From Octopus vulgaris (Eukaryota): DNA of 64,000 bases. The stretch spans positions 98,890,001 through 98,954,000 of the forward strand of contig OX597816.1 of assembly GCA_951406725.2 (NCBI GenBank), written 5' to 3'. The notes below the pieces were generated by a model that was not told the origin of the DNA, made no database searches, and saw nothing but the letters and a program-made list of their open reading frames with translations. Made by a program: the position numbers and the translations under genes. This document shows positions 9,900 through 63,112 of the stretch, piece by piece (the first letter of the stretch is position 1; each line of letters starts with the position of its first letter).

Positions 9900-11316
9900 T
9901 CACCTGCTTCGTGCTCCTTCACCTGTCTACGTTTTTTATATTCTGTAAATTTGCACCCAATATTTTATGTTTTTATTGTCTTTTGGTTTTATGTATTTTT
10001 GTTTTACACAGTGAAATTATTTGATAAAAATAGAAATTTCCGGGCATGACTTATATTCTCGATTTCATTATACTGTATGTCATGATATATCTAAGCAAAT
10101 TCTAGTTCATTTATAAGTATATAAATTTCTTTTCTCGAAACAGACAATAAAATAGAGCAAGAGAAAATTCTGTAAATCTTTTAGTATTTTTATAATGAAC
10201 ACTTTCAAACCAACTAGTAACTGAATTCCATTCTGCGAAGATGATTCTCTAAACTAGCATTTCTGCAGGGGTTTTTTCGGGTTTTTTTTTTTTGTAATTG
10301 TTTTGTGAAATTAATTAATCTACATTTATATATCGAAATGGAATCTTAAATGTGTTCCTTCAGTGTAATATTTTTCTCCCATTGCGCTAAAAATTCCAGA
10401 TCATTATATAATTTTAGATAATGAGTTCTATTTTAAGAACCCTTTCGTTAATAATGTCAGACGATGAGTTGTTCAGACCGATAATAATAAACAATAATAA
10501 ACAGTAAACGATTTGGGTTTGAAAATCAATCAGCGTGCTAATTCATGTATTTTATATGAACTTGTATACTATATTGTGTGTGTGTCTATTTCTTTGAACC
10601 ACTTTGTATAAGTGTGTACGCATGTATGTAAGCATCTATGTATATAGGGACACACATTATGGGGCAGAAATATATTTGGCATTTCGTGTAACGTAGGTAC
10701 AATAATTTCACGGTTTTGTAAAATCCATGGTGCATATACAAATTAATAATTACAATACTAATATTCAAAATAATATATTTATTAAGATTAAATTAAATGA
10801 GACCTCATTTGTAATTTTTACAATAAACACGTTAGCAATAATAACACTGTTTAAATATGAATTAATTAATGACGTAAACTATTGATTAATTCCACATATG
10901 GCATCGTGACGAAACACCCGACAATATCATTAGTATTGATTTCGTTCATACGTATTGGGTACGCCGATTGTCTTCATGTAACCATCCATTATGTGTATGT
11001 GAGTGCGTGCTTCTGTGTGAAGAAGTATTTGTGTAGAGGGTCGCTTTGTGAAATATCACTTTTTCAACCTAAGGGTAGCATAACTGGGTTTTACCCACTT
11101 TAATAATGGGGTTTCACTACGACTGATTTAAAACCTTATGTAGTAATCATGCTAAAGAGATCATCATCCAATAAAATGAAATACCAATCCTCACACAAAT
11201 ATGATGATAAGTAATCAAAACTAGCATTAATATAATCACTTATTGATTCATATACTGTTGCCTTATCAAAACCAAGTTAGATGTTTGGCGGTCAATATGA
11301 AGCGGCTTTGTTAATG

Positions 11317-11356
<40 letters not shown>

Positions 11357-11452
11357 GGAGTAAACACATAAATGTGAAACAAGGTGGAAAAAAGAGTACT
11401 CAAATACCAGTGGTAGAGTAATATGCTTTATTTTAAGCAGCAGAAAATTCAA

Positions 11453-11502
11453 CAAAATCTGTTACTCTGAGTTTCTCGTTGCCGTTCATCAGACAGTTTT
11501 TG
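11453..11502 (-). ncRNA. Type I hammerhead ribozyme motif (left-arm copy)
   Basis: Reverse complement: CAAAAACUGU-CUGAUGA-ACGGCAACGA-GAAA-CUCAGAG-UA|ACAGAUUUUG. Confidence 0.8.
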
Positions 11503-12504
11503 CTAGAATGGAACATATATATTAATTCAATCTATACTCTTACAAACGCTACACCTTTAAAAAGAAATGGACTTGTTTGATTGGCCCTTTAGAAAAAACG
11601 GTCAATCTTCGAGCGATAAACAAAAAGGTCAAAAATATATGTATATATATATAAAAACTTATAAAAATTATAAAATCCGCGGAAAATACCGAGGAAAAAA
11701 CCTGTTGCCGTTAATGAAGACAGTACAAATTAATGCATAGAAATTAAACCTGTTATAAATACTGCAATACATATTTATATTAAAATCCACATATATATAT
11801 CAACATACACAAAAGGATGCGCGTAAACGCCATACATACATATACAGACGTATGAATATGAATCTAAATTATACACATAAAAGCATGTGTACATATATTC
11901 ACGCAAACCGTCTCGCACGCAAGCTAAAATTCATCTATGTAGCAATTCTCATATACTGAGCAAGGAGGGGGAACGAAAGAAAGGGAAAGAGAGAAAAAGG
12001 AACGGAGGAGGGGTGGAGAAAAACTTGTAGCGATGTTATTTGGCATCTATAGAGGCCAGTATACATACACAAGTTTGAATTGATACATATACATACCGTC
12101 GTGTATATGTGTGCTTAAGCACAAGCATACTTTCACTTACACATACACAGATACGCATGCTTACAAATACATATGCTTTGCTATACACAAACTTATATAA
12201 ACATTCTAAATTTGACAACATTGCTTTTTTATAAAAAAACATTGCTTTTAAAAAATGGGTGCATTAATAAAAATATATACGAAAGACCTATAAAATAAAA
12301 TATAACATCCTATTTTGGGTCATTTATAAATAATCAAGGTAATATAAATAATCAAGGTAATCTTATGCAATACAATAACATGAAAACAAAGTTTGTAGGT
12401 TTTTCCTAATATATATGTAGAAATAATAAGACTTTGCTATAGGTCCGTTGTAGCGCTCAAGAGTCAAAATCAAAATCAAAAAATCAAAATACAAAATATA
12501 TACT

Positions 12505-13383
12505 CTATCCATATGGTATATTTATATTCGACATTTTAAATTTAGCCTTGTGCCTACATAAGTTCATTAATTCACTTCTTTGATTCAAAGAATTATTGTC
12601 TTTGAATAATATGTGCATTTTTTCTAATAAGCAAAGCCTGCACTTGAAATTATATTTGTAAGCTCCATGCCTGTATGGTGCCGCCCTGTCCAGAATGCTC
12701 CATGTCACGTTGAAAGGTGGGGTTTCCTTTTCTTTTAGTTCCCAGACATATTTTGCTAGGCTGGTTTTCTTTCTATTCTCTGGGTATTTAAAAGAATTCT
12801 TATGAGAATAAAATCTTGTTTTAAATGAATTTTCTGAAGCCCCTGTGTATGTCTTGTATTCCGATGAGCCTTCCACTTGCACCTTGGCTCTATAAACTAC
12901 TCCTTTCACTAGACATTTCCCTTCTAACGGACAGGAGCTTTCGTTTTTGCAATTACATTTCTTAATGGGCTCGGCACCATGTCTAATCTCAATTAGCTTC
13001 CTATTATGTTGGCTAATGTAAGAGGCGAAATTTCTGCAACAAGAATAGCTAACCTTCAGGGTTCTTCTATTAAATATTCTGTAGAATTTATGACCCTGCC
13101 TAAAATGCTTAGAGACTAATCTCAAAAATTCCTTACCTATATTAGTCTTTACGGCCAAATTGAAAGCCGGGTTGAACCACAAAACTTTCCTAGTCCTAGT
13201 TCTTCGTGCAGCATTATTATTAGCATTAAGCTGGTTGAACTGGATCTTCTCCGAGAATCCACTATTCTTTAATGCGCTATCGTAATAAGGTGCAGCATTA
13301 TGGAATGCTGCCTCGTCCGAAGAAATTGAAGATATTCTTCTACCTACATTGCTGACTAAGTTAATAAGGATAACTATGAGCAT
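12505..13383 (-). CDS. PLE ORF C-terminal part (thumb end, CxC linker, GIY-YIG endonuclease), inverted copy, 292 aa
   Basis: Identical to the C-terminal ~289 aa of the + strand ORF; no stops. Confidence 0.85.
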   Translation of the reverse strand: MLIVILINLVSNVGRRISSISSDEAAFHNAAPYYDSALKNSGFSEKIQFNQLNANNNAARRTRTRKVLWFNPAFNLAVKTNIGKEFLRLVSKHFRQGHKFYRIFNRRTLKVSYSCCRNFASYISQHNRKLIEIRHGAEPIKKCNCKNESSCPLEGKCLVKGVVYRAKVQVEGSSEYKTYTGASENSFKTRFYSHKNSFKYPENRKKTSLAKYVWELKEKETPPFNVTWSILDRAAPYRHGAYKYNFKCRLCLLEKMHILFKDNNSLNQRSELMNLCRHKAKFKMSNINIPYG

Positions 13384-14464
13384 ACATAATTCAAACGGCC
13401 ATGAATCAGATAGACTTAGGAAGGACCTTATAGCTTTCTTTCAAAGGATGGGCTTACGGATTACGATAGATACTAACCTGAATAGTGTAGATTTTTTAGA
13501 CGTAAATTTTAATGTAAGATCGGATAGATTTAAACCTTTCCGTAAGCCCAATGAAAAGCTATCGTATATTAGCAAAGATTCGAACCATCCACCAGTTATC
13601 CTTATTAACTTAGTCAGCAATGTAGGTAGAAGAATATCTTCAATTTCTTCGGACGAGGCAGCATTCCATAATGCTGCACCTTATTACGATAGCGCATTAA
13701 AGAATAGTGGATTCTCGGAGAAGATCCAGTTCAACCAGCTTAATGCTAATAATAATGCTGCACGAAGAACTAGGACTAGGAAAGTTTTGTGGTTCAACCC
13801 GGCTTTCAATTTGGCCGTAAAGACTAATATAGGTAAGGAATTTTTGAGATTAGTCTCTAAGCATTTTAGGCAGGGTCATAAATTCTACAGAATATTTAAT
13901 AGAAGAACCCTGAAGGTTAGCTATTCTTGTTGCAGAAATTTCGCCTCTTACATTAGCCAACATAATAGGAAGCTAATTGAGATTAGACATGGTGCCGAGC
14001 CCATTAAGAAATGTAATTGCAAAAACGAAAGCTCCTGTCCGTTAGAAGGGAAATGTCTAGTGAAAGGAGTAGTTTATAGAGCCAAGGTGCAAGTGGAAGG
14101 CTCATCGGAATACAAGACATACACAGGGGCTTCAGAAAATTCATTTAAAACAAGATTTTATTCTCATAAGAATTCTTTTAAATACCCAGAGAATAGAAAG
14201 AAAACCAGCCTAGCAAAATATGTCTGGGAACTAAAAGAAAAGGAAACCCCACCTTTCAACGTGACATGGAGCATTCTGGACAGGGCGGCACCATACAGGC
14301 ATGGAGCTTACAAATATAATTTCAAGTGCAGGCTTTGCTTATTAGAAAAAATGCACATATTATTCAAAGACAATAATTCTTTGAATCAAAGAAGTGAATT
14401 AATGAACTTATGTAGGCACAAGGCTAAATTTAAAATGTCGAATATAAATATACCATATGGATAG
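13376..14464 (+). CDS. 5'-truncated PLE ORF (RT motifs 6-7 and thumb, CxCx5C linker, GIY-YIG endonuclease), 362 aa from the ATG
   Basis: VDFLDVNF...FRKP...SNHPP (PLE RT end), CNCKNESSCPLEGKC, GVVYRA...YTGASE..FKTRFYSH (GIY-YIG-like) and C-terminal CRLC...RSELMNLCRH. The catalytic YxDD motif is absent. Confidence 0.9.
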   Translation: MSIHNSNGHESDRLRKDLIAFFQRMGLRITIDTNLNSVDFLDVNFNVRSDRFKPFRKPNEKLSYISKDSNHPPVILINLVSNVGRRISSISSDEAAFHNAAPYYDSALKNSGFSEKIQFNQLNANNNAARRTRTRKVLWFNPAFNLAVKTNIGKEFLRLVSKHFRQGHKFYRIFNRRTLKVSYSCCRNFASYISQHNRKLIEIRHGAEPIKKCNCKNESSCPLEGKCLVKGVVYRAKVQVEGSSEYKTYTGASENSFKTRFYSHKNSFKYPENRKKTSLAKYVWELKEKETPPFNVTWSILDRAAPYRHGAYKYNFKCRLCLLEKMHILFKDNNSLNQRSELMNLCRHKAKFKMSNINIPYG

Positions 14465-15469
14465 AGTATATATTTTGTATTTTGATTTTTTGATTTTGAT
14501 TTTGACTCTTGAGCGCTACAACGGACCTATAGCAAAGTCTTATTATTTCTACATATATATTAGGAAAAACCTACAAACTTTGTTTTCATGTTATTGTATT
14601 GCATAAGATTACCTTGATTATTTATATTACCTTGATTATTTATAAATGACCCAAAATAGGATGTTATATTTTATTTTATAGGTCTTTCGTATATATTTTT
14701 ATTAATGCACCCATTTTTTAAAAGCAATGTTTTTTTATAAAAAAAGCAATGTTGTCAAATTTAGAATGTTTATATAAGTTTGTGTATAGCAAAGCATATG
14801 TATTTGTAAGCATGCGTATCTGTGTATGTGTAAGTGAAAGTATGCTTGTGCTTAAGCACACATATACACGACGGTATGTATATGTATCAATTCAAACTTG
14901 TGTATGTATACTGGCCTCTATAGATGCCAAATAACATCGCTACAAGTTTTTTCTCCACCCCTCCTCCGTTCCTTTTTCTCTCTTTCCCTTTCTTTCGTTC
15001 CCCCTCCTTGCTTCAGTATATGAGAATTGCTACATAGATGAATTTTAGCTTGCGTGCGAGACGGTTTGCGTGAATATATGTACACATGCTTTTATGTGTA
15101 TAATTTAGATTCATATTCATACGTCTGTATATGTATGTATGGCGTTTACGCGCATCCTTTTGTGTATGTTGATATATATATGTGGATTTTAATATAAATA
15201 TGTATTGCAGTATTTATAACAGGTTTAATTTCTATGCATTAATTTGTACTGTCTTCATTAACGGCAACAGGTTTTTTCCTCGGTATTTTCCGCGGATTTT
15301 ATAATTTTTATAAGTTTTTATATATATATACATATATTTTTGACCTTTTTGTTTATCGCTCGAAGATTGACCGTTTTTTCTAAAGGGCCAATCAAACAAG
15401 TCCATTTCTTTTTAAAGGTGTAGCGTTTGTAAGAGTATAGATTGAATTAATATATATGTTCCATTCTAG

Positions 15470-15519
15470 CAAAAACTGTCTGATGAACGGCAACGAGAAA
15501 CTCAGAGTAACAGATTTTG
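15470..15519 (+). ncRNA. Type I hammerhead ribozyme motif (right-arm copy)
   Basis: Core CTGATGA (15480-15486) and GAAA (15497-15500); stem II CG-GCAA-CG; stem III ACTC-A-GAGT; predicted cleavage after GUA (15509); stem I CAAAA-A-CTGT pairs with ACAG-A-TTTTG. Confidence 0.82.
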
Positions 15520-15545
15520 TTGAATTTTCTGCTGCTTAAAATAAA

Positions 15546-15585
<40 letters not shown>

Positions 15586-44647: not shown

Positions 44648-44830
<183 letters not shown>

Positions 44831-45895
44831 GTTGAAATTTACTGAAAGACAGAGACAATTGTATAAAAACCAAGCAGGTGTATTATTTTGACGTTCGTAA
44901 AGGTCTGAAAGTCGTTTACGTTTTGAGCCGACGTTCTTCAATGGGAAGGAATGTGATGAAATAAACAGAGAGAGAATAAAAATCTTGTGGTTTTATCGGT
45001 CAATCATGGCGACTAATTGGGAAAAGATAGCTGGACAGGAGAGCTAGAAAGAATGAGAGATACTAAAGTACTGATGATACCAAAAAGGTGTGCGTGCATG
45101 TGTATGTGTAAGTGTGTAAGTGTGGGTAGGATTTGGTGACTTTGACGTGTGGATGTGTGCGTGTGTGCATTTGTAATGTGTGGGTGTGTCAGTGCTAGCG
45201 TGCACGGAGTGGTGTGGGCGTGTGATTTGGTACGGTGTGTTGTGGTGGTGTGTGATGTGGTGTTCTGTGGGGTGGTGTGCTGCGGGGGGCGGCGGGGGTT
45301 GATGTGAGGGTGCGGTGTGATGTAGGGTAAGGATGTGGGTGTGGGTGAGGATGTGAGTGGGGGTGAGGATGTGGGGGATGGAATGAGGTTGTGGGGTGAG
45401 GATATTGGGTGAAGGTGTAGGTGTGGGGGTAGGGTTGTAGTATGTGGGAGTGAGATGAGTAGGGTTGGGGTGGATGGAGGGGGTATCAATGAAGGGAAAA
45501 CATGGGTAGGAGAGATAAGAGGAAGAAGGTGTCATGGCAAGAAAGGAGAGGTAGGAAGAGAAGTAGTAGGTGTAAGATGAAGAGGGGAGAGTTGAGCCTA
45601 TGTGACGCAAAGGAGTGAAGAGAGAAGATTAATTCCTGTTCCCAGTGACGGCGGGAGTTCGGATAGCCCCTGTGCAAAGACAATCCAAACTCAGACAGGT
45701 GTTGTAATCAATAACCTGTAGAGCGAAAATGGCGCGAGACCGGAGTGTCATTACTGAGTCTAATATCTCGGAGGTGCTTCGCGAACCAAACGGCGTCCTG
45801 TCTTACCGATGTACGGAGAAGGGCAGAAAGAGCAGGAGAGGCAGTAAAGGACGTTGCTAAACGTGCTGGTAAATGAGTTAGTGTGATATAAGGGA
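44831..45895 (-). mobile_element. Neptune-like PLE 3' portion (GIY-YIG remnant, C/A-rich UTR, terminus)
   Basis: SFTSTFSNVLYCLSCSFCPSPYIGKTGRRL / FAKHLRDI...PVSRHF...EQELIFSLHSFASHRLN at 45585-45895. The terminus is homologous to 60580-60715 and 62895-63070 and abuts (TA)n. Confidence 0.8.
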
Positions 45896-45914
45896 CTCAC
45901 CACAAACCCGTGAA

Positions 45915-46099
45915 AGTAAACACATAAATGTGAAACAAGGTGGAAAAAAGAGTACTCAAATACCAGTGGTAGAGTAATATGCTTTATTTTAAGCAGCAGA
46001 AAATTCAACAAAATCTGTTACTCTGAGTTTGGTCTGATGAACGGCAACGAGAAACTCAGAGTAACAGATTTTGTTGAATTTTCTGCTGCTTAAAATAAA

Positions 46100-46100
<1 letters not shown>
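45915..46100. mobile_element. Miniature inverted derivative of the 11355-15546 PLE family
   Basis: Tail 45915-45981 is identical to 11359-11425. 49-bp perfect inverted arms (45982-46030 and 46052-46100) enclose a 21-bp spacer holding CTGATGA. It ends at the same AAATAAAG|(TA)n junction. Confidence 0.92.
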
Positions 46101-46134
<34 letters not shown>

Positions 46135-46142
<8 letters not shown>

Positions 46143-46584
46143 AGTGTATTTTTACCTTGTTAACAATTAACACGGAAAAATAAATAAATAGTTACCAGGG
46201 CAGCAAAAATCTCACAAGTAAAGGTGTTGTAACTCCTTGTTTATAAAGGTAGAAACTTCGTGTTTACGTTGAATATTTTGAATAATATGAATAAAAAAAA
46301 TTGAGTTAACGCAGGTGTAATCAAATATTTTTACTTTCGACACATGTTTCGAAAATTCCACTGATACTATTCAAAAGAATAAATGGTATAAACAATGCAA
46401 ACTTTTTTTTTTTTTGCTAAAATGTCTTATTGACGAGTTTCGTTTTTTTCACTTTCCTGAGGAGAAGATTGCATTGTATATACCATTTATTCTTTTGAAT
46501 AGTATCAGTGTAATTTCCGAATCATGTATCGAAACTAAGAATATTTGATTACACCTGCGTTAACTCCATTTTTTTATTCATATA
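46135..46584. mobile_element. Second miniature inverted PLE-like terminus with a long stem II hammerhead
   Basis: ~116-bp diverged inverted arms (46285-46400 and 46469-46584), a ~150-bp extension on the left only, and (TA)n on both sides. Confidence 0.7.
46451..46536 (+). ncRNA. Hammerhead-like motif with a ~55-nt stem II (decayed; intact 3' core retained in the opposite arm)
   Basis: ACUUUC-CUGAGGA-[long hairpin 46464-46518]-GAAU-CAUGU-AUC|GAAACU. The left arm (46333-46350, minus strand) reads GAAAC-AUGU-GUC|GAAAGU, restoring GAAA, GUC and a 6-bp stem I. Confidence 0.65.
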
Positions 46585-46609
46585 TATATATATATTATCG
46601 TTTAACTTT

Positions 46610-47030
46610 CACGGGTTTGAGCCAGCGGCCTCAGCCATACTGATTCACCTTGGACGTTGCCGCTCTTCTCTGTACATCTTGCCCCGATGTGGGTTCATCC
46701 GGGATTGCAAGTGAAAAAAAATGTCTAGACGTTTTTGAAGATTTCTATGTCCGTACCTCGCAGATCCCTGATGTCCTGTGGTAGGGCTTTAAAGAACTGT
46801 GGTCCCTTAAATCCAAACCTACTACAATATTGTGTTCGTATCCTCGATGAAGAAGATCGGCACTTTGATACTCTGTAGTGCCGTCCAGTTCAGGGATTGT
46901 TGTAGCTTTCTATTCCGAAGCTTTGAGTTATTTTCCATATGTATAGCACTGCATATCTCTCACGTCTCATCTCCGGGAGTAGAGTCCCAATTCCTTTAAC
47001 CTCTCCCAGAAGCCCTTATGTTTTACTGAG
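46610..47030 (-). pseudogene. CR1-like LINE 3' fragment
   Basis: FWERLKELGLYSRR, FGIESYNNP.TGRH, FGFKGPQFF and IPDEP motifs. Confidence 0.75.
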
Positions 47031-60579: not shown

Positions 60580-60715
60580 TTTATTCCTTTCTGTTGAAGA
60601 ATGTTGGCTCGAAACATAAAAGACTTTTTCCTTTTCCCGAATGTCAAACTAACGCGCCTGCTAGCTGTTCATACAGCTGTCTTTGTCTTTTGTTTCTCTC
60701 TAGAAATTTCAACTA
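60580..60715 (+). mobile_element. Solo PLE 3' terminus with hammerhead-like motif
   Basis: CTTT-CTGTTGAA-GAATGTTGGCTC-GAAACATA-AAAG...AATTTCAACTATATA; homologous to 44831-44960 (minus). Confidence 0.6.
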
Positions 60716-60751
60716 TATATGTATATATATGTGCGTGTGTGTGTGTGTGTG

Positions 60752-62894: not shown

Positions 62895-63070
62895 GCCACT
62901 AAACACATTTCTTTCTCTACTTGTTTCTTTTTGTGCTCCTTTCTGTGGAAGAGCGTAGGCTCGAAACGTAAAAGACTTTTTCAATTCCCGAGCGTTATAG
63001 TAATACATATGTTTGTCTTCTACACCAACTGTCTTCGTCTTTTGTTTTTTTTTCGTGAATTCTCCCTATA
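62895..63070 (+). mobile_element. Solo PLE 3' terminus with hammerhead-like motif
   Basis: CTTT-CTGTGGAA-GAGC-GTAG-GCTC-GAAA-CGTA-AAAG, followed ~100 bp later by (TA)n; same family as 60580 and 44831. Confidence 0.65.
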
Positions 63071-63071
63071 C

Positions 63072-63112
<41 letters not shown>

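Follow-up and report, generated by a model that had tools for sequence, protein, structure and literature searches.

The 71-nt tail that one arm of an inverted Penelope-like element (PLE) carries in the DNA of Octopus vulgaris is probably accounted for, in both position and length, by a duplicated bulged hairpin, which had been overlooked in a first-pass annotation of the same DNA. Judging from the sequence, the tail would be the stretch between two internal start sites of reverse transcription, each located about 6 nt upstream of one predicted hairpin, and a probability of roughly 0.65 is given to this overall model. We infer, likewise from sequence, that each hairpin anchors the reverse transcriptase (RT). 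While tails, (TA)n targeting, internal starts, and an uncleaved template are already known, the hairpin module appears to be undescribed in print. The window, as the whole stretch of 64,000 nt analyzed is called here, contains two copies of the element (Table 1).

Copy 1 (11355-15546) consists of two head-to-head, 5′-truncated arms inside (TA)n. Its sense arm ends at G15546 (...AAATAAAG) and is followed by a TA tract of 38 nt (15547-15584), the proximal junction reading AAAG|TATA, whereas the inverted arm runs beyond the equivalent base, 11426, by exactly 71 nt (11355-11425) up to a TA tract of 33 nt (11322-11354). These base-level coordinates of the arms and TA tracts bear out the unequal arm ends recorded in the first-pass annotation. 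Three one-base indels in homopolymers, without any substitution, are the sole differences between the two arms (11426-13375 versus 13594-15546; 99.8% identity), indicating that the insertion is young, and the segment 13376-13593 is unique to the sense arm. In copy 2, the last base of the sense arm, G46100, is the equivalent of G15546, and a TA tract (46101-46134) follows. The tail of this copy (45915-45981), which had been taken to be the same as that of copy 1, represents only 67 of the 71 nt: the final CCGG is missing, and the outer end is without (TA)n and adjoins an old endonuclease-like frame. The tailed arms of the two copies are nevertheless identical at 116 of 116 bases, far above chance. 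The left junction of copy 2 (45903-45917) shows a 15-nt exact inverted match to 46605-46619, about 700 nt away, or an 18-nt match if one gap is allowed (45903-45920 versus 46602-46619), and the partner is the 3′ end of a LINE-like remnant; such 15-nt inverted matches within 1 kb were found at 49 of 3000 random positions. Because this match overlaps the junction, secondary end-joining is suggested, and the junction has the appearance of a templated insertion or of a microhomology deletion, with loss of the TA tract and of the final four bases of the tail. Thus (TA)n tracts border three of the four ends of the two copies; no target-site duplication is readable inside (TA)n at the insertions. The GUA cleavage site of the hammerhead ribozyme (15509|15510) is traversed without indel by all four arms.

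Table 1. Coordinates of the two inverted element copies and their parts within the window.
Feature	Position	Strand	Basis
Left (TA)n target tract, copy 1	11322..11354	.	sequence
71-nt tail, copy 1: 6-nt linker, hairpin 1, and spacer to the putative distal start site	11355..11425	-	
Hairpin 1 (predicted): ACUC/GAGU basal stem, UACC/GGUA upper stem, 3-nt U bulge, conserved ACU	11395..11419	-	
Linker CATATT between proximal junction and hairpin 1, holding ATAT	11420..11425	-	
Inverted 5′-truncated arm, copy 1: thumb, endonuclease, 3′ UTR, hammerhead	11426..13375	-	
Hammerhead core, inverted arm	11463..11492	-	pattern; no Rfam match
Sense 5′-truncated arm, copy 1, to proximal junction	13376..15546	+	
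C-terminal half of Hydra-clade ORF, starting right past RT YRDD: CxCX5C linker, GIY-YIG-like endonuclease, CxxC, CxH	13376..14464	+	
Type I hammerhead core CUGAUGA...GAAACUC-A-GAGUA; predicted cut after 15509, 37 nt short of the junction	15480..15509	+	
Right (TA)n target tract, copy 1	15547..15584	.	
Copy 2 tail, 67/71 nt; hairpin 1 at 45951-45975; end without TA tract	45915..45981	-	
Copy 2 inverted arm, 5′-truncated within hammerhead (= 15498)	45982..46030	-	
Copy 2 sense arm (= 15478-15546), preceded by one extra G at 46031	46032..46100	+	
Copy 2 (TA)n tract	46101..46134	.	

By its protein motifs, the element is a new member of the Hydra clade of PLEs, which is defined by CxCX5C, CxxC, CxH, RWK, and DKT motifs together with a lack of CCHH and nearly all families of which target (TA)n, according to the text of Craig 2021 (PMC8557442). 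Among 1,395 candidates, 212 full-length proteins of about 700 aa are related to the frame at 13376-14464 at E ≤ 0.001, the best being 56% identical. The protein P0083, which is 41% identical to that of the window across 353 aa, has a 13-residue peptide in common with the published Hydra-1_Amil protein, N-terminal in P0083. In the window ORF, the linker takes the form CxCX5C (CNCKNESSC) in place of CX2-5CxxC, the CxxC and CxH motifs near the conserved E and N are present as CRLC..E and CRH, and a GIY-YIG endonuclease with conserved R, E, and N (VVY...YTG) lies C-terminal to the RT; CCHH is absent from its core, with no Cys between VVY and YTG. RWR/RWK and DKT motifs are found in the closest full-length homologs, the corresponding N-terminal part being truncated in the window. 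The endonuclease call rests on alignment, since Pfam gave no match for the window ORF and four homologs. Assignment to Neptune, Nematis, or Naiad was rejected, as the CX2-5CxxC linker and CCHH (and, for Naiad, the N-terminal endonuclease) were not found in the window ORF. The linker peptide of the window was not found in the searched part of the supplement of PMC8557442, and the family lies outside the six consensi of its File S7.

The core and stems of the hammerhead were found by pattern, and their layout matches that of Hydra-2_aMil in File S2 of Craig 2021 (PMC8557442), stem II of the predicted ribozyme having only 2 bp. In Rfam, no family reached the gathering score in the window and no model matched the hammerhead; below threshold, only weak miRNA-type matches were seen, at 11300-11700 and in eight of nine related loci (L006 not given), none of them a curated family on the hairpins.

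Those related loci came from a scan of genome contigs, in which 46 stretches matched, 10 of them encoding a relative, giving nine loci (L001-L009) whose proteins are 31-71% identical among themselves. These contigs are filed under bacterial genomes but carry animal-type PLEs, and are most likely host DNA binned into bacterial genomes; in L002, the PLE is situated close to one end of a contig of 491 kb and next to a bacterial gene, probably through a chimeric join. The hammerhead is present in eight of the nine, L006 being cut off ahead of its position, and a motif of the form RCNC-stem-loop-stem-bulge-GNGY-ACT follows the ORF-linked hammerhead in seven. At the ORF-linked end of L009, (TA)n begins 31 nt past the cut, and the motif is found instead in two small non-coding elements at this locus, both inverted and with the same one-tailed layout as the window copies. 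Hammerheads without the motif are the 3′ one of L002, which diverges 8 nt past the cut, those of tail-less arms, and those of a third family in L009. In tandem copies of L003 and L008, the tail corresponds exactly to the stretch that follows the 5′ pLTR.

In all five loci that reach the start codon, two bulged hairpins (RCUC...GAGYACU) are located between the hammerhead and the ATG, with spacings of 62-68 nt from hairpin 1 to hairpin 2 and of 38-55 nt from hairpin 2 to the ATG. The distance from the hammerhead cut to hairpin 1 is 40-57 nt in each of the 10 tailed or tandem arms tabulated, being 43 nt in the window. Hairpin 2 of the window's own family lies outside the window, so that its position is a prediction. 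For pairing analysis, 15 distinct hairpins were chosen by eye and by a pattern that requires the 4-bp basal stem and leaves the upper stem outside. With a 2-nt bulge on the 3′ side, 34 of 42 upper-stem positions are Watson-Crick paired in 14 hairpins (34 of 45 if the window hairpin, with its 3-nt bulge, is included), and other bulge sizes give 6-13 of 45. Upper stems with shuffled partners form 15.3 ± 3.1 pairs and reached 34 in 0 of 20,000 trials, relatedness among the hairpins persisting in the shuffle. The nearly invariant basal stem has changed on both sides in three sequences (A-U for G-C once, A-U for U-A twice). Upper-stem columns contain two G-U and no A-C combinations, too few for a decisive strand call. 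Folding of single sequences recovered the basal stem in 13 of 15 cases, with z below -2 in only four of the 15, and the whole 71-nt tail is not unusually structured (z -0.69). Upper-stem pairs were counted on anchored positions because RNAalifold yielded no consensus pairs on the automatic alignment, in which the 5′ strands are misaligned. The covariation and the one-sided bulge point to a single-stranded fold.

When 102,928 bases were searched with a sequence model, each of the 18 matches was a training site or a duplicate of one at an element end; a strict text pattern gave 26 matches in 205,856 nt, eight of them away from such ends. Short tandem repeats upstream of the L008 element (L008:1206-1370) contain hairpin-like matches, with four off-target matches of the loose pattern. 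In the published Hydra consensi, which serve as an independent set, the motif is present by eye in four of the six, namely in Hydra-2_Amil and Hydra-2_Ajap, twice and 61 nt apart in Hydra-1_Ajap, and twice in a variant form in Hydra-1_Crog; the Hydra-1_Amil consensus stops ahead of the motif position, and a clear hairpin pair was not found by eye in Hydra-1_Obim. Nor was the motif found by eye in PAc, an element of the anole, and the mechanism may therefore not generalize.

Insertion ends keep a common distance from these hairpins. The comparison covers five junction types; in four of these, microhomology leaves the exact position as a range. The junction lies ahead of hairpin 1 by 6 nt in the window (two copies), 5-8 nt in L009a, and 6-7 nt in L009b, and ahead of hairpin 2 by 4-7 nt in L008 and 4-8 nt in L003, where the distal end was thus located directly; all five ranges include 6 nt, before hairpin 1 in ends without a tail and before hairpin 2 in ends with a tail. 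An end of the L009a family in the L003 flank reads AG|TAT by eye, as in L009a, the automatic value of 11-16 nt being skewed by two substitutions. Hairpin 1 is separated from the distal TA by 65 nt in the window and by 60, 58, 60, 61, and 61 nt in five other arms, i.e., in six of the seven arms, the seventh, in L004, showing no clear TA junction. Together with the linker, this distance gives tails of about 64-71 nt, near the spacing of the hairpins. Since the ends fit points before both of the homologous hairpins, the tail can be regarded as one repeat of a start module. The earlier proposal of a fixed internal start site at the 3′ junction is thereby upheld: the end falls on one and the same base in both window copies, other families of the Hydra clade likewise have fixed ends, and a PLE RT starts in vitro at two internal sites bounding the tail (PMC11167929). 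It had also been noted that the tail is about twice as long as in Drosophila, which is correct, although 64-71 nt is ordinary among the Hydra-clade loci compared and looks like the normal length in this clade.

The further proposal, that template AUAU pairs with nicked (TA)n, survives in a weaker form. TAT starts 4-9 nt ahead of 12 of the 15 hairpins, as compared with 1-2 of 15 at five control offsets and with an expectation of 5.2 after shuffling of the final 12 nt (p 0.00015, with the offset range set post hoc). Flush microhomology at the junction amounts to 3 nt in L009a, 1 nt in L009b, 3 nt in L008, and 4 nt in L003, but to 0 in the window, where the first base past the junction is C versus T: the ATAT of the linker is in register with the (TA)n target, yet one base off the junction (template CATATT versus target TATATA). 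The anole RT, moreover, starts at non-homologous sites. Owing to the enrichment of TAT before the hairpins, UAU pairing has comparative support as a helper, not as the determinant.

The model would operate as follows. The endonuclease would nick both strands of (TA)n; an RT on hairpin 1 would prime at one nick and produce the tail-less arm, and a second RT on hairpin 2 would prime at the other nick and copy hairpin 1 and the spacer first, producing the tailed arm. End-joining of the two cDNAs at their truncated ends would then leave inverted arms with a single tail. The UAU linker may help to seat the TA primer, mismatches being tolerated. In the window's family, hairpin 2 is predicted to start 4-8 nt after ...TTTACTCCGG. 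A variant in which one RNA carries two RTs, one leading and one trailing, was rejected. It predicts a tail-less arm that in every case extends farther 5′, as is true of the two window copies (by 218 and 20 nt); in L009b, however, the extended stem I shows the tailed arm to be the longer one, by 7 nt, and the arms of L009a cannot be oriented.

None of the ended copies compared includes hairpin 2, and if a distally primed cDNA is to reach the ORF, both hairpins must therefore follow the ORF in its template. As the tailed arm of the window does reach the ORF, the order ORF, hammerhead, and both hairpins is needed in its template; tandems in this order occur in L001 and L005. An uncleaved tandem transcript is ranked first, with about an even chance of being that template. 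A circle re-ligated after hammerhead cleavage takes second place as an unlikely candidate, and a precise template jump, such as is known from R2, comes third and is more doubtful still. All three yield identical DNA, so circular RNA is possible and not required. The first-pass annotation had deduced an uncleaved or circular template from arms that cross the cut site. The crossing itself stands, but the precise jump had been omitted, and uncleaved RNA is already a reported substrate. A bolder version can be offered only tentatively: Hydra PLEs would carry a duplicated, as yet undescribed cis-RNA element, in which a bulged hairpin and a UAU alignment segment act as a telomerase-style anchor and ruler, two RTs would prime on opposite (TA)n strands and in a single step create both the one-sided tail and the inverted arms, and copying round the re-ligated, hammerhead-cut circle would regenerate both start sites.

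The main rival explanation acts at the DNA level: the endonuclease would recognize the motif in its own cDNA or tandem DNA, cut at the TA-like linkers, and so resolve a longer intermediate with or without the tail. Sequence alone fits recognition at either level, the linkers, TA-like in 12 of 15 hairpins, are similar to the (TA)n target, Craig 2021 (PMC8557442) attributes tails to endonuclease-mediated resolution in its text, and the tail of D. virilis is cited in Frangieh 2024 (PMC11167929) as required for endonuclease recognition. Covarying stems with a one-sided bulge favor a single-stranded fold, however, the window linker CATATT is a poor (TA)n site, and the anole tail ends coincide with RT start sites determined in vitro (PMC11167929), so this explanation is considered improbable. 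A slightly lower probability is given to the idea that pairing of UAU with nicked (TA)n sets the start sites by itself and that the hairpins serve elsewhere, for example, in translation or as a promoter. The position of hairpin 2, 38-55 nt ahead of the ATG, would suit such a role, and flush microhomology reaches 3-4 nt in three of the five junction types; against this, the window has no flush microhomology and L009b has just 1 nt, longer TA runs in the 1-kb 3′ UTR of the window element (e.g., 11637-11653) are unused as ends, and the ends follow both hairpins at a single distance.

It is very improbable that the inverted arm arose by self-priming or fold-back on an antisense template, or that the 4.2-kb palindrome is a fold-back artefact of assembly. 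Self-priming of antisense templates has been proposed for rotifer PLEs (PMC3846280), the window arms are 99.8% identical, and the L009b junction is palindromic, but fold-back cannot create 71 nt that are missing from the other arm; in addition, the two flanks are not alike, the arms of each window copy meet at a unique spacer and not at a palindromic tip, and the one-tailed layout occurs again in copy 2 and in unrelated contigs.

Several parts of this reading have precedents. In the text of Frangieh 2024 (PMC11167929), the tail of PAc, a Poseidon element of Anolis carolinensis, is delimited by two internal sites at which its RT starts in vitro; nicking and extension take place on both strands of an AT-rich target, and the RNA serving as main substrate is uncleaved, hammerhead cleavage being unneeded, all as in the model presented here. 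The PAc start sites are non-homologous to the cut DNA, so that microhomology is contradicted for this element; they lie inside the ORF in an AC-rich stem-loop, and the tail has 30-40 nt. The putative start sites of the Hydra elements, unlike in PAc, are in the 5′ UTR, 62-71 nt apart, each ahead of a repeated bulged hairpin and a TA-like linker. Inverted PLE insertions with tails of 30-40 bp at one end were already described (PMC8557442), and the Hydra clade as presented there resembles the window element in its C-terminal GIY-YIG, CxCX5C, CxxC, and CxH motifs, 3′ hammerhead, (TA)n target, and inverted truncated copy with a tail at one end; it differs in the tail length, and hairpins or start modules are unmentioned in that text. 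The 34-37-bp repeat of Penelope in Drosophila virilis (Schostak 2008, PMC2377424) and the 31-bp tail of Adineta Pen2a (PMC3846280) are likewise optional 3′ extensions equal to the sequence after the 5′ pLTR, with inverted terminal copies, but they are half as long, are situated at the ORF start, and belong to a different clade. Non-LTR retrozymes share with the window element a type I hammerhead with a short palindromic stem III, and a circle has been proposed for their more-than-unit copies (PMC7229834, PMC4209133). A circular PLE template was proposed in 2014 (PMC4209133); circular RNA was shown for retrozymes, i.e., for short non-coding repeats (PMC7229834), whereas for PLEs circles are proposed. 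Since two-site starts, (TA)n targeting, and uncleaved or circular templates are published, the three earlier inferences drawn from this DNA were largely in print. Repeated hairpins at PLE tails were not found described in the literature searched by full text; Figs S1-S2 of PMC11167929, which depict the PAc stem-loop, may be relevant here. The origin of the inverted repeats and one-sided tails of PLEs has been a question since the 1990s, with one element studied in vitro, and a motif that predicts both ends makes it directly testable.

Two further systems are analogies and do not imply membership. In twin priming of L1, nicks on opposite strands give two primers and lead to inversion, but non-overlapping parts are copied and the second primer needs microhomology, whereas both arms of the window element copy the same region. 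In telomerase, a template-boundary hairpin sets the copying boundary at a fixed distance through the RT bound to it; this boundary element ends copying, while the Hydra hairpin would begin it. Because no RTs of mobile elements are more closely related to telomerase than those of PLEs, a start signal composed of a hairpin and an alignment segment bears on the origin of telomerase-like template recognition. A portable start signal of 30 nt for a (TA)n-targeting RT could also serve in tools for RNA-templated insertion, and the hairpin motif offers curators a boundary marker for Hydra elements.

Some additional observations concern the related contigs and the rest of the window. In L003:1757-1830, a single case, the proximal module may also be a point where copying stops, which a circle would permit. 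L005:1-141 and L005:2395-2535 form an exact 141-nt terminal repeat, so that this contig represents a single unit of 2,394 nt that closes on itself, such as a circle or the collapse of a tandem array would give. At L009:4225-5700, small non-coding hammerhead elements, two of them one-tailed and inverted, are nested serially in each other's (TA)n tracts, and the third hammerhead family there (5537, 6634) is without the hairpin. In the window, a weak tblastn match (E 5e-5) to the N-terminal part of the RT of P0001 at 10147-10417 (minus strand) is possibly a decayed PLE remnant, 900 nt to the left of the element. The stretch 44800-45914 (minus strand), with related ends at 60583-60745 and 62937-63100, has a broken C..C....YIG frame and a degenerate minimal hammerhead, and from its motifs we take it to be an old Neptune-like PLE; three 3′ ends of this family stop at a similar point, followed by (TA)n. 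An old 300-nt inverted repeat with arms 79% identical occupies 46285-46583, and 46597-47030 (minus strand) is the 3′ end of a broken LINE, presumably CR1/L2-like, which also terminates in (TA)n.
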